Shown: positions 35,575 to 44,508, counted from the first letter of the stretch. The stretch: DNA of 64,000 nt from Sulfolobales archaeon (GCA_038831135.1 JAWBKW010000004.1:29135-93134), one strand, 5' to 3'. Made by a program: numbers and translations. Notes: a model not told the origin generated them from the letters alone.

Positions 35575-37086
35575 TTAACCAGAATTATTAAGCACCTCTC
35601 GGACAGCCTTATCAGCTATAACTAAACCATTACCAACGGCATTTGAACCCCAAACATGAATTTCAGTACCTCCTGTAGGCACATTAACTTCAGCACTTCC
35701 TTCGGATATATTAATGGTAGAACTTTCAAGTAATTGCTCTGCTATCGGTTGATTAATATCTAACTTATTATCCTTTAAGATATCGGCCTGTAAAATTAAT
35801 GCAAGTATACCGCTAACATGAGGTGCTGCCATAGAGGTACCACTTACGTAATAGTATTGCCCTGGCTTACCGTTAGCCCATAATGGTGGGTGAGCCGTTC
35901 CATAAGCCGTATATGGTGCAACGACCCAAACACCAGGCGATAAAACATCTAAATCCTGCCCTTCTAAAGCCCTACTACTGAAGTTAGGTATGTAGACCTG
36001 ACCCCTAAGTTCATCAGGATTTTCAGGGACGTCTGAAAGACGCCACCAACCACTCATCTTGAATTGATCTACCCAACCTACTGCACCAACAGATATCACC
36101 TCCTCATATGCCCCTGGATACGACATCCCTTTATCTCCCTCATTCCCAGCAGCCGCTACGACGAAAACACCTTTACTTATTGAGTAATCTATAACTTCTT
36201 TCATAAGTGGTGATGGAGGTCCTCCTAAGCTTAAGCTTATGATTATCGGGTTAACAATGCCTGGTGGGTAAAGGGTGTTCCCCTCACTAGCAATCTCATC
36301 TTCATATAATTTAGTAATGTAATATATTCCTGCTACAACATCTGAAGTGAATCCCCATCCCTGATTACCTATTACCTTAACTGGGATGATCTTAGCGTTT
36401 GGAGCCACTCCATCAATTACGTAGAGATTGTAGACCTTATAACCCAATATCACTGACGTGACCGCCATACCGTGACCGTCTTTATCAGCTTCCCAAGCAT
36501 TCCTATTTAACTCCTTATTAGTTACTAAATATGAAGTCGCCATAGCTCCTAAGAAAGCCGCAGCATGTTCCGTATCTATACTATCTTCGCTGAAGTAGTT
36601 CCTCCAATGAGGTTCAAGTCCTGTGTCAAGGATCGCTATGTAAACCCCCGAACCATTATAACCTAACTCTTCATGAACTACAGATACGTTAATCATATCT
36701 AAGTTCCAAGTAAAATTAGCCCCATGTTCTAAACATTTGCTTGGCAGCGCCTCACCTAATGGTTTCACAATACCTGCTTCACTAATTGATTTAATACCTT
36801 TTAAGGATGTTTTTAAGTTGTTAATTCTTTCATTACTTAAGTATATTGCTAAGCCCCTAAACTCATCAAACCTATATATTATTCTTCCTCCTAAGTTAGA
36901 GATTACTTTAATATCTTCGTCGCTTATATCGCGGTCTAGCACGATCTCAAATACTGAAGGTTTTCCCTGCGCATGTAGTATTGATGTAAACGATGATGCG
37001 ATAATTACTGAAAATATAATCACGGCTATAGTTAGCGAATAGAGATTTAAAGTCTTCACCATTAAGTCAACCCATATATATATCAT
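35575..37086 (-). CDS. Secreted S8 subtilisin-like serine protease with propeptide
   Basis: Signal peptide; ILDTG, GHGMAV, AAGN, SGTSMAAPHVSG. Confidence 0.92.
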   Translation of the reverse strand: MIYIWVDLMVKTLNLYSLTIAVIIFSVIIASSFTSILHAQGKPSVFEIVLDRDISDEDIKVISNLGGRIIYRFDEFRGLAIYLSNERINNLKTSLKGIKSISEAGIVKPLGEALPSKCLEHGANFTWNLDMINVSVVHEELGYNGSGVYIAILDTGLEPHWRNYFSEDSIDTEHAAAFLGAMATSYLVTNKELNRNAWEADKDGHGMAVTSVILGYKVYNLYVIDGVAPNAKIIPVKVIGNQGWGFTSDVVAGIYYITKLYEDEIASEGNTLYPPGIVNPIIISLSLGGPPSPLMKEVIDYSISKGVFVVAAAGNEGDKGMSYPGAYEEVISVGAVGWVDQFKMSGWWRLSDVPENPDELRGQVYIPNFSSRALEGQDLDVLSPGVWVVAPYTAYGTAHPPLWANGKPGQYYYVSGTSMAAPHVSGILALILQADILKDNKLDINQPIAEQLLESSTINISEGSAEVNVPTGGTEIHVWGSNAVGNGLVIADKAVREVLNNSG

Positions 37087-37147
37087 ATGAGATATAAATA
37101 AAACTTATTATTTCATAGGACTTCCCTTTTACCGGGGATGTGTTGTA

Positions 37148-37438
37148 GTGGTTGATGACAGTTTCTGTAGCGATAACGTCATATATATCGGTAAGAAATT
37201 CTTTATGAGATATGTAGTAGCTGTTTTGGTGAAATTTAATAAATTTAATTGTAGTGAAGTAGTGCTTAAGGCTCGTGGAAGCAACGTCTCTAAAGCAGTA
37301 CTAATAGCTGAGTCGTCAAAGCAATTGATTAAGAACCTTAATTATCGCTCAATCGTTTTAGGTTCTTCATACCTCGAGTTAGGGGGACTAAGAAAGAGAT
37401 TATCAACTATTAAGATAGTTATTTCTAGAGTTGATTGA
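37148..37438 (+). CDS. alba: Alba-family chromatin protein (divergent paralog)
   Basis: IYIGKK..MRYV, VVLKARG..SKAV..AE, STIKIVI. Confidence 0.8.
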   Translation: MVDDSFCSDNVIYIGKKFFMRYVVAVLVKFNKFNCSEVVLKARGSNVSKAVLIAESSKQLIKNLNYRSIVLGSSYLELGGLRKRLSTIKIVISRVD

Positions 37439-40135
37439 GTTAATAATTTCCTTTATGTTGCTAGATAGTCTAAGGATTAGCTCATCCTCGTTACTTATGT
37501 TTAATGCTATTATCCAAGCATCAACCTGCTTCTCTACCGGTATTGCAGTAATTTCGTTTTCCTCAAGTACTTTAATTTCGTCAGGAGATCTTATATAATT
37601 CCATTTAGGCATTAAGAACTTCCTTATCTTAACCTTCTTAGTCCTGATGGCTGCCAAGATTTTCCCAGAACCTCTCCAATCTAAGCCCCCAACAGGGCCT
37701 ACACCACCTTTAATATCACATTTACCCGTCATAACTATATCCGGGCTTACAGGAATTCTAGCAAGTTCCGAAATAGTAGCAACACTTAATGCTAGACCTA
37801 AACTAGGTCCACTAACACCTGCCCCAGGAACACCCTCCATAGGACTTATGACTTGATATCTGAAGTCGAAATTCTTTAAGTCGTAACCAGCTTTAGTCAT
37901 TATATAATGCTTTATAAAATCAACCACGTTAGACGCGCTCTCCACCACACTTAGATCTTCTACAGAGGCCCCAGGTCCTAGTACGATTGATTTCGCTACT
38001 CCTGTAATACTTACTTTTCCACTACCGAAGGGATTAACAGAGCATTCAACAATTAATGGAATGCCTCTCCTACCTTGGGTATCTGTTCCCAACCCTATAG
38101 CGATGCCTGGGCGAGGTTCAATAGTGATTAAACTTTCTTGCACATCAAGTAGTTCCTTATCTATATCTTGCTCTAATGACTCGGCTGCTTTTTCGAAATG
38201 ATATAATCTTAACTTATAATCTTCAGTCCTAACTTTCAGAACTTCATCTATGCTCGAAGCATTTAAAACCTCTTTCACTCTTTTTAACTCATCAGAGTAG
38301 AACTTAATCAACTCCTCATACCTGGTAGTGTTTAACGAACTCTTAACATCAGTGATAGCCGTAATTTCCTGAGCCCTCAATCTATTAGCCTCTCTGATGA
38401 CTTCAGCAATAACCCTAGGCGATACGGTCCTAAACCTCTTCAATATACTTAAAACTCTCTCAGGAGTTACTTCGGGATGTATATGTTGGATGTATTGCCT
38501 AAGATGCACCCTAATTATGTCTAAACGCTCAGAATCATTTCTAGGTAGAGGTATTTCAATTACGTAAGGCTCGAACCTATTAATTACTGCTTCATCAATA
38601 GCTTCGATCCTATTAGTTGCTGCAATAATTAAGACTCCTTCAAGTGGTTGAAGACCGTCTAGCTCAGTAAGTATTTGAGCTGTTAATCTATCACCAACAG
38701 GATCCCCTCTCCTCTTAGTAGCTATGACATCAAATTCATCGAAGAAAACGATACTCGGTGAGTGTTTCCTAGCCAACGAGAATAAATCTTTAATGTTCTT
38801 TTCAGGTTCACCAACCCACTTAGCGTTAATGAGTAACTGTGAGGCAGGCACGTAAAAGAATGTAGCATTTGCTTCCTTAGCGATCGCCTTAGTTAAGTAT
38901 GTCTTACCGCACCCCGGCTCACCATATAGTAGGATACCTTTAGGTGGGACCCAACCGAGCTTACCTGAAAGCTCAGGCCTTAAACTCAGCATGACCAACT
39001 TAAATAATTTGTCCTTAATGCTGAATAAACCACCTATATCTGAATAATTTACTGCTGGCTTTATCTGAAGTATAGTACCTAAAACTTCTACACTCTTCTC
39101 CTGCTCTACATAGCCCCTTAACTCCCTCGAAACTAATTTAAAATCCTCTAAGGTTACGTTGCTTTTGATAATATCCTCGATTTTATCCGAACCAAAGAAC
39201 CTACTAAGTAACTTACTCCTTAACGGTTCAACCTTCTTAAGATAGACCTTAGTACATGCATCAATTATGTCGAAGGGAGTTAACTGTGTTTGCCTGTAAG
39301 CACTTACAGACTTTTCAAGAACCTTCATAACTTCTTCAGTCTTAAGATGCGTCCAACCAAACCGTTTTAACTGGGAGTCTAAAACAGCTAATAACATTTC
39401 CCAAGTAATATTCTGATCAAGGTCTATTACATATGCTCTCCTCCTAATGTCCTCCCTAATGCTTTCAAACTTATTGGTAGCAGCTATTATTACGACTCTC
39501 TTATTACCATCAACAATCTTATTTATGTGTTCAATAAACAGATCCTGAACCTTAACATCCTCACGTTCAGCACCATACATAGGCTTCTCAACCTTCATAC
39601 CGATAGAGTGAAACTCGTCTAGGAAGATCACGGTTGGTGTTTCCTCAGCACGCCTGAAGATAGCTGTTAAATTCTTCAATGACTGACCATAAAGCGGATG
39701 AAATATCTCATCACATTGAATGACCATAGGCTGTACATTAACTCCGCGCTTTAAACCGTAAATTATTGCCTCCCTTAAACATACCTCGGCCAGTAAAGAC
39801 TTGCCGGTTCCTGTATTACCTTTAAGTAGAAAGAACTTAGGGGGTTGCATCCCCTTAAGCAAATTAATAATTGCATCATCCTTAATAACGTGATAAGCTA
39901 TTGCAGACATAATCATTTCAAATTCCTTATCCCTACCAACTAAGTCCTCCCTCTTCTTAGGGAATAGTTTATCGACCTCCCTTAATTTTTTCTTAATCTT
40001 TGTAGGTGTTAGCCTAGCATTCCTCCATTTCCTAAAGTCCTTATTAACGAGAGACAGAGGTAGGTATAGAATCCTCCTTAATGCAGAATTCTTTAACCAC
40101 CAGTACACGTTTTCCTCATTCTTCATCGATGACAT
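37403..40135 (-). CDS. Tandem AAA+ ATPase (Cdc48-like D1-D2) fused to a C-terminal Lon (S16) protease domain
   Basis: GNTGTGKS/IFLDEF/AATN; GEPGCGKT/KWVGE/FFDEFD/AATNR; Lon motifs SGPSLG, MTG, PVGG...KILAA. Start at MSSMK (40135) is more likely than the GTG at 40177. Confidence 0.88.
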   Translation of the reverse strand: MSSMKNEENVYWWLKNSALRRILYLPLSLVNKDFRKWRNARLTPTKIKKKLREVDKLFPKKREDLVGRDKEFEMIMSAIAYHVIKDDAIINLLKGMQPPKFFLLKGNTGTGKSLLAEVCLREAIIYGLKRGVNVQPMVIQCDEIFHPLYGQSLKNLTAIFRRAEETPTVIFLDEFHSIGMKVEKPMYGAEREDVKVQDLFIEHINKIVDGNKRVVIIAATNKFESIREDIRRRAYVIDLDQNITWEMLLAVLDSQLKRFGWTHLKTEEVMKVLEKSVSAYRQTQLTPFDIIDACTKVYLKKVEPLRSKLLSRFFGSDKIEDIIKSNVTLEDFKLVSRELRGYVEQEKSVEVLGTILQIKPAVNYSDIGGLFSIKDKLFKLVMLSLRPELSGKLGWVPPKGILLYGEPGCGKTYLTKAIAKEANATFFYVPASQLLINAKWVGEPEKNIKDLFSLARKHSPSIVFFDEFDVIATKRRGDPVGDRLTAQILTELDGLQPLEGVLIIAATNRIEAIDEAVINRFEPYVIEIPLPRNDSERLDIIRVHLRQYIQHIHPEVTPERVLSILKRFRTVSPRVIAEVIREANRLRAQEITAITDVKSSLNTTRYEELIKFYSDELKRVKEVLNASSIDEVLKVRTEDYKLRLYHFEKAAESLEQDIDKELLDVQESLITIEPRPGIAIGLGTDTQGRRGIPLIVECSVNPFGSGKVSITGVAKSIVLGPGASVEDLSVVESASNVVDFIKHYIMTKAGYDLKNFDFRYQVISPMEGVPGAGVSGPSLGLALSVATISELARIPVSPDIVMTGKCDIKGGVGPVGGLDWRGSGKILAAIRTKKVKIRKFLMPKWNYIRSPDEIKVLEENEITAIPVEKQVDAWIIALNISNEDELILRLSSNIKEIINSINSRNNYLNS

Positions 40136-40925
40136 CGTACCACCCTTTCCATTTACATATGTAGTAAGCCACACCATTCACGAAGAGTATGAGAAACGGC
40201 ACTAATAACCATGAAATCTCTAAATTAAAGCTCCTATAGAGTAAATTATTATATATAGCTAACCCAACCGTAGTTATGGCGCATGCCAAGAACGCGACTA
40301 AAGAACCATACAATAAGTACCTAATAACTAATGCTATGGATTCCTCAATACCCCACCTATCCCTCCTTAACACAGAATAACTTCTAACATCAAGAACTGC
40401 AGTAGTTATAAATAATGACAGGATAATCAAGATTATAGCTACGTTCCAAGTAGGTGCCCTCAGATAGAAAGGTATTTGAATAGAAGGTACTCCGTAACTC
40501 CCTGATAAATTATTTACAAGCCTAAAAGTTAGTTGTAGACTAACATTACCGGGACTATTAAGTATATCCACTAAGGAATTCTTTGAATTAATGACGGATA
40601 TATTGATTGTATAAGGACTTGAGGAATAAAGCACAACTAAAAAATACGAATCACTTAAATTATATACCTGCTTAACTAACTTCATGTAGATGGAACCGGA
40701 ATACTTGCCCTCACTAGAAGTGTTAACGACGTCAACCAAGAAAGCATCAGACAAATCCGACGTTAATACATAGATTTGATCCTTTCCCTGATAATTTATG
40801 AGGATCCCATCATTTATATTTGATAACACTACATCCTTCTGAACTACCATAACATTAGCTAAATTCATAACCATGAGTACATATACCATAAAACTCAAGA
40901 CTTTCGCATATGTAGGTACTAGCAT
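40116..40925 (-). CDS. Hypothetical membrane protein (N-terminal signal/TM, beta-rich domain, three C-terminal TMs)
   Basis: Hydropathy by eye; 3' end overlaps the AAA-Lon start. Confidence 0.7.
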   Translation of the reverse strand: MLVPTYAKVLSFMVYVLMVMNLANVMVVQKDVVLSNINDGILINYQGKDQIYVLTSDLSDAFLVDVVNTSSEGKYSGSIYMKLVKQVYNLSDSYFLVVLYSSSPYTINISVINSKNSLVDILNSPGNVSLQLTFRLVNNLSGSYGVPSIQIPFYLRAPTWNVAIILIILSLFITTAVLDVRSYSVLRRDRWGIEESIALVIRYLLYGSLVAFLACAITTVGLAIYNNLLYRSFNLEISWLLVPFLILFVNGVAYYICKWKGWYDVIDEE

Positions 40926-41013
40926 TATACTTATTCTACACCAATATTACCTACGAATTACTAGCTAATTAAGCTATATTGACTTCGTTAACCATCTCAG
41001 CACTACTCAATTT

Positions 41014-42456
41014 TCACATCCTAAGAGAACCCAACATAAGGTTTAATAATATATGAGGTATAAACCAAGTAATGACTAACAACACTATAATTAATATTAA
41101 AGTTGCATTCATGGATTTCGGTAACTCTACATATCCTATATCAGCAGGCTTTAACGAACCAAAGACCACATTCTTAATAATTCTTAAACCATAAGCTATC
41201 GTAAATATCATAGATGTGATAGCTGCTAATGAGAGTATATAAAATTCTATAGACGCTTCAGCAGCAGTTCTTAGCACTGATGAAATTATTAAGAACTTTG
41301 ATACGAATCCAGCAAATGGTGGTAAGCCGGCTAGGCTAAAAAATCCGACAATGAATCCTATACCACATAATCTGCATCTCCTTAAAATCCCACCAATAAG
41401 ATTAATATCTCTTATACCTAGCGAGTAAACCAAAACACCTGAAGAGAGGAAGAGTAGAGCTTTCGCATAAGCGTGTGAAAGATAATGATATGAAAAAGCC
41501 ATACTGCTATAGAGCGGGTCTTGAACAGATAATGCTAATGCTAAATAGCCCATATGGCTTATGGTTGAATAAGCTAAGATCCTCTTAATGTCGTCCTCTA
41601 GTAAAGCACCTAACCCTCCATAAACTATGGATGAGAGCCCCCAAATTAACACAGCAAGAGCGAATTCGTAAGACTCTATTAAAGACCCCAAAATTCTTAA
41701 GACCCCGTAACCACCTAAACCAACTATTAACGGACTAAGTATAGCACTAAATGGTGTAGGTGCCTCCGCATGTACGAGGGGTAACCATAAATGAACCCCG
41801 AATAACCCCATCTTTATGCCGAAACCTATTAGAAGAATATAAGACACCCATGGAGGTATAGAACTCGATGTTAAAGTACTGAATTGAAAACTACCTACAT
41901 ATACATAAACCGTAGAAAGACCTATGAATATAATTAATGAACCTATTAAAGACCAAACTAAGTAAGTAAAGGATATACTCACACGATTACCATAGCCGTA
42001 GAAGTATATTAGCCCCCAAGATGTTAAAACTATAAGCTCATAAAATATTATAAAAGCAATCATATTGTAGGAAATTATTACTCCAACAATACCTGAGGTA
42101 TTAAGTAATAATAATCCATAAAAAAGGTTAAGCGGAATCCCCCCCAACTCTTCAACTCTATGAATCATATAGTTATATGAATACAAATATATTAGTGGTA
42201 GCAACGTTAAGGCAGCTATTAAAATTATTATATTTAAATAATCGATACCTAGAGAGAAGGAATATTCTAGATGTCCATGTATAACGACTTCAACGTAATT
42301 TTCAACAATGGGTAGGTTTCTAAATAACAAAATTAAAATTAAGTAAATTACTGAGAAACCCAACGATGAAGTACTTAGTATGTATGCTACTCTATCATTA
42401 CGTATGTTAAACACTATTGCTGCAACTGTCGCTGGTACTACTATAAGCTCTATCAC
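41014..42456 (-). CDS. NuoM/MrpD-like proton-conducting membrane subunit
   Basis: FYEL, IKMGLFGVHLWLP.VHAEAPTP, KRILAYSTISHMG, SHAYAKALLF, GLPPFAGF. Confidence 0.9.
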   Translation of the reverse strand: MIELIVVPATVAAIVFNIRNDRVAYILSTSSLGFSVIYLILILLFRNLPIVENYVEVVIHGHLEYSFSLGIDYLNIIILIAALTLLPLIYLYSYNYMIHRVEELGGIPLNLFYGLLLLNTSGIVGVIISYNMIAFIIFYELIVLTSWGLIYFYGYGNRVSISFTYLVWSLIGSLIIFIGLSTVYVYVGSFQFSTLTSSSIPPWVSYILLIGFGIKMGLFGVHLWLPLVHAEAPTPFSAILSPLIVGLGGYGVLRILGSLIESYEFALAVLIWGLSSIVYGGLGALLEDDIKRILAYSTISHMGYLALALSVQDPLYSSMAFSYHYLSHAYAKALLFLSSGVLVYSLGIRDINLIGGILRRCRLCGIGFIVGFFSLAGLPPFAGFVSKFLIISSVLRTAAEASIEFYILSLAAITSMIFTIAYGLRIIKNVVFGSLKPADIGYVELPKSMNATLILIIVLLVITWFIPHILLNLMLGSLRM

Positions 42457-42465
42457 TATTGCGCA

Positions 42466-44508
42466 TCACCTTATAAGTAATAAAACCCCAGTTAAAAAGA
42501 TAGACAAGGCAATCATATAAGTAGTTAAGAATGTATCAATATCAGCATAGCTTAACGCGTCAAACAACTTCCTCAAGCTTTTATAAGAATAAATCCCTAC
42601 GTATGTAACAACTAAATTGAGGAAATTATTTAACGCGTTGAATAAATCCTTAGCAACTATCGTCACTAACCTAGTATTTGGGCAAAAGCTTTCATAGCAG
42701 ATAAGTGATCTAACGCGGTTTTTAAAGGTATGTATGTATTTTAAAGTTTTGTAATGTTTGGGAATGCCTTTAATGGATGAGAGAAAGACTCTCAATCTAT
42801 AAATCATTTTAAGTTTCACTAAAAATCCATAGTATGTTAATGGACGTGATAGGTAAGGTTGATTGACATATATCGCTAATAAAACACCTAAGAAAATAGC
42901 ACTGAGGGATATTACCATAAAGGAGAGATCCAGATGCACGTGTTCTATCTCCTCGATTAAGGTTACCATCTTCAAGATGTTGCCTTTAATATCTAAACCT
43001 AAAATTCCTGCTAGAAACGTAGCAAATGCCAAGATGAGTGGTGGGTAATACATTAATTCGTTAATTTCGCGATACGTATGAATAGCTTTATCAGACCCGC
43101 TAAATATAATTACAATCATACGGGTTGCGTAAAAAGCTGTGAGGAACGTACCTAACACCGTAATTAGGAATAACGCATTATGTCCTCCACCAACTATAGT
43201 CTCTATTATAAACTCCTTGCTCCAGAACCCCATAAGTGGAGGAACCCCTATAAGACTAAGGGATGATATTAAAGTAATCATGAATAAAGACTTAAATCCC
43301 TTTATATGCAACTTCATTTCATCGAGGTAAATGGTGCTAGTTACATGTATTAGAATTCCGGCTATGAGGAAAAGAGCTGACTTAAATAATGCATGATTAA
43401 TTAAATGATACAATGTAGCTGCACCCGCTAATAAAGGTACCTCTAAAAATCGTGATAAACCTAAAAGAATGAACATATAGCCTATTTGACTAATTGTTGA
43501 ATACGCTAAAACCCCCTTCAACTCTACAGTCCTACCCGCATATATAGCACCGATAATCATAGAGCCTATCCCTGAAGCAATTAATATGTAAAAAAGTAAT
43601 GAAGCCGTATCTATCGCATTAGCTATCTCCACAAAATACGGAAGTAAACGCAGTATAATGTAAACACCACCTTTCACCATAGTTGCTGAATGTAGGAGTG
43701 CTGACACCGGTGTAGGTCCAGCCATCGCGTAGGGCAACCATACATGCAGAGGAAATTGTGCCGATTTAGCGATCGGCCCTACAATAAATAGAATTAAAGA
43801 CAAGACCACTATCCAGCTAGGGGTACCACCATAAATTAATTCTCTAATTACATGTAAATCTTCGTAGTAAGGAGAGCCTGTAATTGACATAAGCAGTAAG
43901 ATACCTAGTAACATAAGGGTGTCTGCCGAACCAACGATCAAAAACGTAATATAGGAACAATAACTCGGCTTATACATAGGTGTCTTAGACGGAGGTCCCC
44001 CAATCCAATGCTCCTTTTCATCACCATAGTAATAGCCAATCAATAAATAACTGCTTAAGCTCATACCCTCCCAGCCGATGAACATTAAGATGAAATTATT
44101 AGAATTAATTACAACTAACATGCTTGACACAAATATAAGCATTAGGAACCAAAATCTTCTAGTGTCACTATAGTTCTCATCCTTACCCATATAACTGATT
44201 GAGTAAGTAAGAATTAGGATAGATAATCCGCAAACAAGTATGTTAAGTATAATGCTTAGAAAATCTAAAGCAAAAGACATACCAATAGGCTTTATACCGG
44301 GTAAATTCAGCCAACCATTAAATAATTCAACATTAATAACCGTACCATTAATAACGTTAAATAATAAGACTAGGGAGACGGAAAGGGAGATGCAGACAGA
44401 AATTACTGAAATAATTCCTAAAAACGCATTACTTTTTACAATAAGTGATATCAACGCAGCAACCATAGGTGCCGTTAACTCTATAGTCAATAATTCCCTA
44501 ATCATCAT
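42466..44508 (-). CDS. NuoL/MrpA-like proton-conducting membrane subunit
   Basis: GWEG, KSAQFPLHVWLP.AMAGPTPVSALLHSATMV, HALFKSALF, GFWSKE. Confidence 0.92.
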   Translation of the reverse strand: MMIRELLTIELTAPMVAALISLIVKSNAFLGIISVISVCISLSVSLVLLFNVINGTVINVELFNGWLNLPGIKPIGMSFALDFLSIILNILVCGLSILILTYSISYMGKDENYSDTRRFWFLMLIFVSSMLVVINSNNFILMFIGWEGMSLSSYLLIGYYYGDEKEHWIGGPPSKTPMYKPSYCSYITFLIVGSADTLMLLGILLLMSITGSPYYEDLHVIRELIYGGTPSWIVVLSLILFIVGPIAKSAQFPLHVWLPYAMAGPTPVSALLHSATMVKGGVYIILRLLPYFVEIANAIDTASLLFYILIASGIGSMIIGAIYAGRTVELKGVLAYSTISQIGYMFILLGLSRFLEVPLLAGAATLYHLINHALFKSALFLIAGILIHVTSTIYLDEMKLHIKGFKSLFMITLISSLSLIGVPPLMGFWSKEFIIETIVGGGHNALFLITVLGTFLTAFYATRMIVIIFSGSDKAIHTYREINELMYYPPLILAFATFLAGILGLDIKGNILKMVTLIEEIEHVHLDLSFMVISLSAIFLGVLLAIYVNQPYLSRPLTYYGFLVKLKMIYRLRVFLSSIKGIPKHYKTLKYIHTFKNRVRSLICYESFCPNTRLVTIVAKDLFNALNNFLNLVVTYVGIYSYKSLRKLFDALSYADIDTFLTTYMIALSIFLTGVLLLIR

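Follow-up and report, generated by a model that had tools for sequence, protein, structure and literature searches.

In a 64,000-nt stretch of DNA from a Sulfolobales archaeon (GCA_038831135.1 JAWBKW010000004.1:29135-93134; this whole stretch is referred to as the window, and positions are counted from its first letter), two overlapping genes on the minus strand probably encode a two-subunit, membrane-anchored ATP-dependent protease, as judged from their sequences. The larger gene encodes a protein of two Cdc48-like AAA modules followed by a Lon protease domain (the AAA-AAA-Lon protein, or large subunit). The smaller gene, directly upstream, encodes a 269-aa membrane protein, which we propose to be the anchor subunit (the partner). 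The pair had been singled out in an original prediction, made by a model from the sequence alone, as a double-ring unfoldase-protease recruited to the membrane by a separate anchor.

The longest open reading frame (ORF) of the large subunit spans 37403..40177 on the minus strand and encodes 924 aa from its first ATG. M15 of this ORF (ATG 40135) is where homologs begin, as does the database cluster representative P0001 (identical to the window protein at 908 of 910 residues); residues are therefore numbered from this methionine. A Pfam search matched the AAA family (PF00004) in two stretches (E = 1.5e-56) and Lon_C (PF05362) at the C-terminus (43 bits; cut-off, 21.1). The Cdc48 N-domain, the LON substrate-binding domain, and the M41 family were absent among the 24 Pfam families at E ≤ 0.01. 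As a control, the Cdc48 proteins returned by the same homolog search (rows from P0099 on) did carry PF02359 and PF02933.

Both modules contain the motifs of classic-clade AAA proteins. D1 carries a Walker A lysine (K112), the pore loop PLYG (Y149-G150), a Walker B pair (D173-E174), the sensor N221, and arginines R231-R233, while the corresponding positions in D2 are K411, the pore loop KWVG (W440-V441-G442), D466-E467, N508, and R520. In an alignment of 74 full-length homologs (A2), K112, D173, E174, R231-233, D466, E467, N508, R520, S778, and K825 were invariant, and K411 was conserved in at least 90% of the sequences. These data agree with the original prediction, which had read two classic-clade AAA modules with intact Walker A and B motifs and aromatic pore loops, and no Cdc48 N-domain.

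The arrangement of the two modules follows that of Cdc48. The Cdc48 model TIGR01243 aligned colinearly over both of them, from profile position 178 to 725 of 733, with 218 bits. With D1 alone as the query, the best matches were the D1 modules of VAT, Cdc48, and p97 (best E = 4.4e-21, to VAT residues 217-346), and the second-best stretch, of lower score, fell on D2; for the whole protein, the best-matching stretch in the Protein Data Bank (PDB) was D2 of VAT and p97 (E = 1.6e-76). The AlphaFold2 model of P0001 (mean predicted local distance difference test score [pLDDT] 81.8; predicted template modelling score [pTM] 0.54) was matched by Foldseek to p97/CDC48A chains over approximately 600-650 columns (E ~1e-28), and the low TM-scores of these matches reflect differences in domain orientation. 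None of the 60 best PDB sequence matches was a solved entry joining tandem AAA modules with a Lon domain. Outside the modules, conservation extends to the N-terminal helical region, where W12-W13 are nearly invariant and W37 is invariant among the 74 homologs, and to the linker between D2 and the protease domain, which has no family match and contains the invariant residues H646, F647, A650, and L654.

The C-terminal domain contains both residues of the Lon catalytic dyad. S778 (codon 37802-37804) lies in GPSLG and K825 (codon 37661-37663) in GKILAA, 47 positions apart with 46 intervening residues. In the available part of a study of Lon subfamilies, LonA and LonB are stated to have exactly 42 residues between the Ser and the Lys, and the residue before the catalytic Ser is Pro in LonA and Asp in LonB (PMC9569914). 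The LonB and LonA protease domains in the PDB matched at E values of 1.2e-10 to 1e-7. The closest of them was the protease domain of Archaeoglobus fulgidus LonB (1z0c; phmmer, E = 1.2e-10); aligned to the window protein, it lacks four residues immediately ahead of the Lys. Thus, the wider spacing and the four-residue insertion noticed originally are borne out by the motifs and the structural relative. As the Ser is preceded by Pro and four extra residues stand before the Lys, the Lon centre is, by its sequence, best described as A-type with a family-specific insertion.

No transmembrane (TM) segment was found in the large subunit using a 19-residue Kyte-Doolittle mean with a threshold of 1.6 (largest mean, 1.31), in line with what had been predicted. 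The conservation of the partner gene beside homologs is central to the proposal. In the clade closest to the window protein (close clade), a membrane ORF on the same strand was located directly upstream in all 20 loci from other genomes. These ORFs encode 124-408 aa (mostly 257-298), carry the same type of tail in 20/20, and stop 7-40 nt before the WW codons of the large subunit; the frame of the latter is offset by +1 in 21/21 loci (the 20 and the window). The genes beyond the pair vary from locus to locus and include AIR synthase-like, SPOUT methylase, LeuA-like, phosphate transporter, and other genes.

In Asgard homologs, the two genes are joined in frame. These proteins are approximately 100 residues longer at the N-terminus, and alignment identified the extension as the TM module of the partner: partner residues 160-269 matched residues 9-122 of the Asgard proteins P0051 (BLASTP, E = 2e-15) and P0062 (E = 2e-16). 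The alignment stops exactly at the last residue of the partner, after which the Asgard proteins enter the conserved PWW motif. Among the 84 family members longer than 850 aa, 8 have such N-terminal TM segments.

The association extends to the more distant clades. A scan of metagenomes with P0078 yielded a third clade, in which a TM protein of 260-327 aa was present in 45 of the 49 loci with enough upstream DNA and ended between -23 and +3 nt from the AAA-Lon start. Sixteen of these neighbours matched the hidden Markov model (HMM) of the clade 1 partner at E < 0.01 (best, 1.6e-7). In the second clade, a membrane protein of 229-270 aa adjoined the gene in 20/20 loci. These neighbours are homologous to each other (BLASTP, E = 8e-14 to 8e-29) and consist of a hydrophobic N-terminus, an exported domain of approximately 150 aa, and two TM helices, resembling the window partner in architecture only.

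The partner itself matched no Pfam or NCBIfam family. Its AlphaFold2 model (mean pLDDT 82.2) begins with a hydrophobic helix, followed by a beta-sandwich ectodomain, three TM helices, and a short acidic tail (Table 1). Conservation in an alignment of partners (A3) is seen in the C-terminal motif W-(R/K)-G-W-(Y/F)-(E/D)-x-I-D-E-E, which precedes the TGA stop at 40116-40118, and in the motif P-(A/G)-N-(I/V)-(T/S) of the ectodomain, which has five sequons. Foldseek returned no PDB match to the partner at E ≤ 1e-3, and the ectodomain gave weak Ig-like or cohesin-like fold matches only. A wide VIA-align search reached a best Z of 7.7 (helix bundles) and of 6.5-6.9 for Ig-like folds, values in the noise range of the tool, and no fold family was assigned. 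The ectodomain is absent from the Asgard fusions and from the partners at L125 and L128 (124 and 134 aa), which consist of the three-TM module only. Given this loss in two lineages, the ectodomain appears to be accessory, and it may have a regulatory or structural role. The partner profile detected only 31 clusters among 1.84 billion representative proteins. One protein that it matched, P0148 (1666 aa), contains 15 separate stretches similar to the ectodomain profile (positions 12-109), forming a long tandem array.

We next considered whether the pair is translated as one polypeptide or two. The original prediction held that the membrane gene overlaps the start of the AAA-Lon gene; the overlap is present, and because homologs start at M15, its extent is 20 nt and not 62 nt (11 nt if translation begins at ATG 40126). 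In the window, a Shine-Dalgarno (SD)-like GGGTGG sits 4 nt before ATG 40135. A start codon in the AAA frame was found inside the overlap in 21/21 loci (ATG in 20/21), and an SD-like purine motif precedes a start by 4-11 nt in 18/21. At the remaining locus without an ATG in the overlap (L124, G320:C7), the only start candidate is a TTG located 7 nt after GGAGG. The SD motif is formed by the W-R-G codons of the partner (TGGAGGGG in most loci), and these residues are kept in split forms only; in the fused Asgard proteins, where an internal ribosome-binding site is unnecessary, other residues take their place.

Alternatively, programmed +1 frameshifting at the partner stop could yield an Asgard-like fused protein, alone or beside the separate products. 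The constant +1 offset would suit such a mechanism, as would the stop itself, which is TGA in the window and in 18/20 other loci, and a one-base skip there would join IDEE to the residues before WW, colinear with the Asgard fusion. However, the fixed offset is explained by an ancestral overlap alone, the GAA-TGA sequence appears to offer no slippery codon for re-pairing, and contigs from an RNA library show no indel across the junction. Together with the starts in 21/21 loci, the SD-like motifs in 18/21, and the restriction of W-R-G to split forms, this makes frameshifting very improbable, and the evidence favours two coupled cistrons at the level of sequence.

Two coupled genes also appear to be the older arrangement. 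A FastTree phylogeny was calculated from 104 sequences and 825 columns, comprising 56 clade 1 proteins (including 7 Asgard fusions), 20 of clade 2, 18 of clade 3, and 10 Cdc48 proteins, assumed to be the outgroup; neither partial sequences nor family members outside A2 were included. The family was monophyletic (support 0.945), with clade 2 as the sister of clades 1 and 3 (1.0), and the monophyly of clade 1 was weakly supported (0.134). The fused Asgard forms made up one group (1.0) nested within a subclade of clade 1 (0.941). Rooted on Cdc48, the tree places the fused forms within the split ones, which suggests that the two-gene form came first and that the Asgard fusion is secondary.

The homolog search placed approximately 98 members or fragments in the family before the score dropped from 444 bits (row 98) to 305 bits (row 99, an ordinary Cdc48). 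In the source databases they are annotated only as 'AAA family ATPase', 'ATP-binding protein', 'hypothetical protein', or 'SpoVK/Ycf46/Vps4 family'. Their organism labels are Sulfolobales, Nezhaarchaeota, Verstraetearchaeota/Methanomethylicaceae, Bathyarchaeia, Hecatellales, and Odin-, Hod-, and Promethearchaeota, and a more distant group bears bacterial labels. Beyond the group of 73-90% identity to which the window protein belongs, the nearest proteins (65-68%) are labelled Nezhaarchaeota. The 'bacterium' labels of the third clade are unconfirmed: none of 301 sampled Acidobacteriota genomes matched P0078 at E ≤ 1e-100, with only two candidates per genome scored in the rows shown, and the genome from which this sampling started gave no match either. 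Promethearchaeum syntrophicum MK-D1 and two Asgard metagenome-assembled genomes contained no match to the C-terminal 365 aa at E ≤ 1e-10. Loci L001-L080, obtained from a generic AAA motif scan of genome contigs, proved to be Cdc48, FtsH, and similar proteins and were not used.

Among 401 sampled genomes of the window's phylum, 55 carry the gene. Over the last 365 aa, 25 of these belong to the close clade (53-63% identity) and 30 to the second clade (33-40%). All 20 second-clade proteins retain two Walker A motifs, two Walker B motifs, and GPSAG; GKI(E/D)AA is found in 18/20, and the Ser-Lys spacing is 47 where computed. The window genome is the sole carrier in its own family and order among the sampled genomes (0/20 listed relatives), which may reflect either horizontal gain or retention in a basal lineage.

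The distribution and neighbourhood of the gene also bear on whether the pair is an anti-phage defence module. Iet, a system that pairs an ATPase with a subtilase, would be the parallel. PADLOC IetA models do match the large subunit, in the D2 region only (E = 1.4e-43), NCBIfam IteA scores 133 bits, and 317 nt downstream, in the same orientation, there is a gene for an S8 subtilase. However, the IteA score is far below the cut-off of 510 and lower than the Cdc48 and PAN scores, so it reflects generic classic-AAA similarity. Moreover, the gene is present, with one matching gene per genome, in 15/17, 13/32, 5/6, and 5/8 genomes of whole families, it is surrounded by housekeeping genes that differ from locus to locus, and the GC content of the pair is not distinct from that of its flanks. 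A defence role is thus extremely improbable.

The genome that contains the window, which is 93% complete, encodes two genuine Cdc48 proteins (TIGR01243, 1162 and 1093 bits), a PAN-like ATPase, and a CdvC-like ATPase; the AAA-AAA-Lon gene is therefore an addition to the usual set and not a replacement of Cdc48. No LonB or FtsH was found in it above the curated cut-offs. Control searches of Sulfolobus acidocaldarius likewise yielded neither a Lon_C match nor a hit above the cut-off of the LonB model. The only other Lon_C match in the genome is a 665-aa ORF (L152:1153-3150; G000 contig C14) with a Lon-like domain near its N-terminus (residues ~75-206) and approximately 450 further residues of unknown nature. 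This ORF is not a LonB; it scored far below the LonB and LonA cut-offs.

Across the 401 genomes, LonB-like genes (E ≤ 1e-60) were detected in 22, none of them above the curated LonB cut-off, and these 22 genomes do not overlap with the 55 that carry AAA-AAA-Lon. This pattern fits the view that the two are alternative solutions, although related genomes are not independent observations. The original suggestion that the protease replaces LonB- or FtsH-type quality control is consistent with the lack of both in the window genome and with the disjoint carriers, but is not proven by them, as most of the genomes have neither gene (see below).

Sequences of the pair were detected in hot-spring metagenomes: 70-97% of the sampled words were found in DNA from eight runs of two studies, and 44% in one metatranscriptome run. 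Contigs from an RNA library, whose source strain is 95-99% alike, span 37725-40921 and thus the junction (pieces 39634-40157 and 40128-40308) without indels. In this library (X9; one study, contigs only), no cover was seen at 37141-37704 and 40948-41088. Compared with the related strain, the large gene shows 25 synonymous and 4 nonsynonymous differences, and the partner 8 and 3, respectively, among 40 of 49 differences listed, which is consistent with purifying selection on both genes. No clear TATA box was found in the 88-nt AT-rich spacer upstream of the partner.

Several observations weigh against a membrane-anchored protease. At the arginine-finger position, D2 has a single Arg (INRF, R520), compared with RRR in D1. 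The Ser-Lys spacing, with 46 instead of 42 intervening residues, is unlike that of every characterised Lon. In the second clade, the neighbour lies upstream on the same strand at 9 loci and is divergent at 11 (n = 20); it was tried as a homolog of the window partner and rejected (hmmsearch, none at E ≤ 10; hhalign probability, 1.4%). The contigs of the RNA library may derive in part from DNA, and they are no proof of one continuous transcript. Because 324/401 genomes have neither AAA-AAA-Lon nor a LonB-like gene, the AAA-AAA-Lon gene is not a general necessity in the phylum. Finally, partner residues 155-269 were co-folded with the first 345 residues of the large subunit, a test that the original prediction had proposed, and the ipSAE was 0.47. 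This exceeds the best of three controls (0.00), at least 92% of contacts are shared between runs, and the pLDDT of the partner is at least 80; however, the support is weak. The co-fold mark was reached by 58/80 solved complexes and 2/110 mismatched pairs, and the scores at or below 0.60 comprise only 7 of the 80 solved complexes plus both passing mismatches.

The atypical dyad spacing raises the question of whether the Lon domain cuts at all. It could be a non-catalytic scaffold or ligand-binding module, as are the Lon-like domains of proteins such as RadA/Sms, in which case the protein would act as an unfoldase or segregase tethered to the membrane and pass its substrates to another protease. 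The proteasome is presumably served by the PAN-like ATPase and the two true Cdc48 proteins that the genome also encodes, and many MEROPS S16 groups are non-peptidase homologues according to the part of PMC9569914 available. On the other hand, S778, K825, and their Gly-rich surroundings are invariant in 74/74 homologs from at least two deep clades, and the second clade keeps the Ser motif in 20/20 and the Lys motif in 18/20. The large subunit also lacks a C-terminal HbYX, the motif that docks on the 20S proteasome: it ends in L-N-S, and the C-termini of its homologs vary. We consequently regard a non-catalytic role as unlikely.

The weak co-fold, the divergent second-clade neighbours, and the large subunit free of TM segments would also suit a soluble cytoplasmic protease that is functionally unrelated to the membrane protein and merely shares an operon with it. 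Against this, the anchor module is fused in frame in 8/84 long homologs, the rare partner family (31 clusters) adjoins the gene in every close-clade locus examined, the overlap and its frame are conserved, and the neighbours beyond the pair are not. A purely operonic adjacency is, in our view, very unlikely.

The features of the gene pair are collected in Table 1.

Table 1. Coordinates of the gene pair and its parts in the window, with residue ranges of the encoded proteins.
Feature	Position	Strand	Basis
AAA-AAA-Lon gene, 910 aa + stop	37403..40135	-	Pfam/NCBIfam matches, homolog starts
N-terminal helical region, residues 1-95 (boundary approximate), proposed anchor docking region	39851..40135	-	Helices 12-57 in model
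D1 classic AAA module, residues ~96-345 (boundaries approximate)	39101..39850	-	Motifs, invariance, VAT/Cdc48/p97 D1 matches
D2 classic AAA module, residues ~346-600 (boundaries approximate)	38336..39100	-	Pfam, motifs, VAT/p97 D2 matches
Helical linker between D2 and protease, residues ~601-670	38126..38335	-	Model secondary structure; role inferred only
Lon S16 proteolytic domain, residues 672-868 (Pfam envelope)	37532..38122	-	PF05362, 1z0c match
Gene junction: SD-like GGGTGG 40140-40145, ATG 40135, ATG 40126, AAA frame at +1	40116..40145	-	Sequence
Partner gene, 269-aa membrane protein, proposed anchor subunit	40116..40925	-	ORF call; close-clade homologs upstream
N-terminal hydrophobic helix of partner, residues 1-20, likely signal peptide or first TM segment	40866..40925	-	Model helix 3-20; Kyte-Doolittle 1-19
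Beta-sandwich ectodomain of partner, residues 25-136, N-x-S/T sequons	40518..40853	-	Nine strands in model
Three TM helices of partner, residues 159-260, conserved anchor core	40146..40451	-	Model helices 159-186, 193-230, 237-260
Cytoplasmic acidic tail of partner, residues 261-269, ending IDEE	40119..40145	-	Conserved C-terminal motif

Further genes were observed around the pair and around its homologs. On the plus strand of the window, an Alba-family gene (37148-37438; PF01918, E = 2.9e-9) runs toward the AAA-Lon gene, with a 36-nt overlap between their 3' ends (37403-37438). The subtilase gene mentioned above (35575-37086, minus strand) encodes 503 aa with an N-terminal hydrophobic segment. 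Immediately upstream of the pair (41014-44508, minus strand) are a 480-aa Proton_antipo_M ORF (membrane subunit of NADH-quinone oxidoreductase or Mrp antiporter) and a 680-aa ORF; this neighbourhood was not seen at the other loci with neighbours scanned. The divergent second-clade loci (L132, L134, L135, L137, L139-L144, and L148) belong to family f14, genus g37, and behind the divergent neighbour an ORF of 247-257 aa with four to six predicted TM segments is found in 11/11 of them; its representative at L132 matches no Pfam family. Many third-clade loci (L157-L183 and L201-L222) carry a SUI1/YciH-family gene of 102-106 aa approximately 300-700 nt upstream of the partner, and the one scanned (L158:1986-2306) scored 134 bits on NF002096.

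Based on these features, a working model can be outlined. The large subunit would assemble as a hexamer of three stacked tiers, namely the D1 ring, the D2 ring, and the Lon chamber, and its N-terminal helical region would dock on the tail or the TM bundle of the anchor. Docking in this way would turn the D1 pore toward the membrane, as in FtsH. ATP hydrolysis may then pull membrane or membrane-proximal substrates through D1 and D2 into the Lon chamber, where they would be cut.

In the accessible part of a review, archaea are credited with only two ATP-dependent proteases, and FtsH is said to be absent from them (PMC4343526). We lean slightly toward regarding the pair as a third class of archaeal energy-dependent protease beside the proteasome and LonB: a three-tier enzyme, anchored by three helices, that extracts and degrades membrane proteins in an FtsH-like manner, is old enough to occur in both TACK and Asgard lineages, and placed a Cdc48-type motor at the membrane before eukaryotic endoplasmic-reticulum-associated degradation. 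With 0/401 genomes reaching the LonB cut-off and only 22 having a LonB-like gene, a Cdc48-like double motor with a Lon peptidase and its own anchor is a concrete and testable candidate for membrane-protein quality control in this phylum, a stated gap in archaeal proteostasis. The single-protein membrane form in Asgard archaea is relevant to how Cdc48-type motors acquired a function at membranes. In addition, a double-ring classic AAA unfoldase joined in cis to a peptidase is an arrangement that we did not find in the literature searched, and it would offer a compact model in which to study the coupling between two rings and a chamber.

The literature was compared with the predicted architecture. 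A full-text search, which did not cover subscription journals and supplementary files, returned no description of a Cdc48-like or tandem-AAA Lon fusion, and the word 'Lon' is absent from the main text of PMC11188069, PMC3493965, and PMC5070193. In the portions available, Lon subfamilies A, B, C, and the proposed BA are each described with one AAA+ module (PMC9569914), and a table of Lon_C architectures has no AAA-AAA-Lon_C entry (PMC2605481). The suggestion that the architecture had not been characterised therefore holds within these sources.

Among known systems, archaeal LonB (MEROPS S16.005; A. fulgidus and T. onnurineus) is alike in being a membrane-associated single-chain ATPase with a Lon Ser-Lys protease, and among solved structures its protease domain is the nearest in sequence. 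LonB differs in having one Lon-type AAA+ module with the membrane anchor between Walker A and Walker B, Asp before the Ser, and 42 intervening residues, as stated in the part of PMC9569914 at hand, which also agrees with the single AAA module that the original prediction had ascribed to LonA and LonB. In contrast, the window protein has two classic-clade AAA modules, no internal TM segment, Pro before the Ser, 46 intervening residues, and a separate anchor, and it scores 59.2 bits on the LonB model TIGR00764 (cut-off, 516.6). LonA, whose model TIGR00763 gives 59.5 bits (cut-off, 608), has a LON domain that the window protein lacks. Relative to S16 Lon proteases in general, the Lon_C domain and the catalytic Ser and Lys are present, whereas the 42-residue spacing and the single Lon-type AAA+ module are not. 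The LonBA proteins of Firmicutes (B. subtilis 'LonB') share an N-terminal anchor and an A-type Pro-Ser centre, according to the same partial source; they are bacterial and have a single Lon-type AAA+ module, with the anchor in the same chain.

The motor has its counterpart in Cdc48, VAT, and p97, with a tandem of classic D1 and D2 modules that is colinear, D1 matching D1 and D2 matching D2. Unlike these proteins, the window protein has neither the N domain (double-psi barrel and beta-clam) nor HbYX, its protease is fused in cis, and the 218 bits on TIGR01243 compare with a cut-off of 802.65. FtsH is similar in combining a classic-clade AAA module with a C-terminal protease, membrane anchoring on the N-terminal side, an extracytoplasmic domain, and a presumed function in membrane-protein quality control. 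However, FtsH forms a single AAA ring, and its own chain supplies both an M41 zinc metalloprotease and the TM helices, whereas the window system would have two rings, a Ser-Lys protease, and a separate anchor that is fused only in Asgard archaea; the FtsH model TIGR01241 gives 149.4 bits (cut-off, 600). Two stacked ATPase rings also feed a serine-peptidase chamber in ClpA/ClpC-ClpP, which is a soluble complex of other AAA+ clades with a separate heptameric S14 peptidase. On the IetA/IteA model NF042959, the score is 133.3 bits (cut-off, 510). The protein is thus not a member of LonA, LonB, Cdc48, or FtsH by these tests. Its parts and the AAA+ protease principle are familiar, and the combination was not found described; what would set the system apart is the joining of a Cdc48-type double ring to a Lon peptidase in cis, with an altered dyad spacing and a dedicated three-helix tether.

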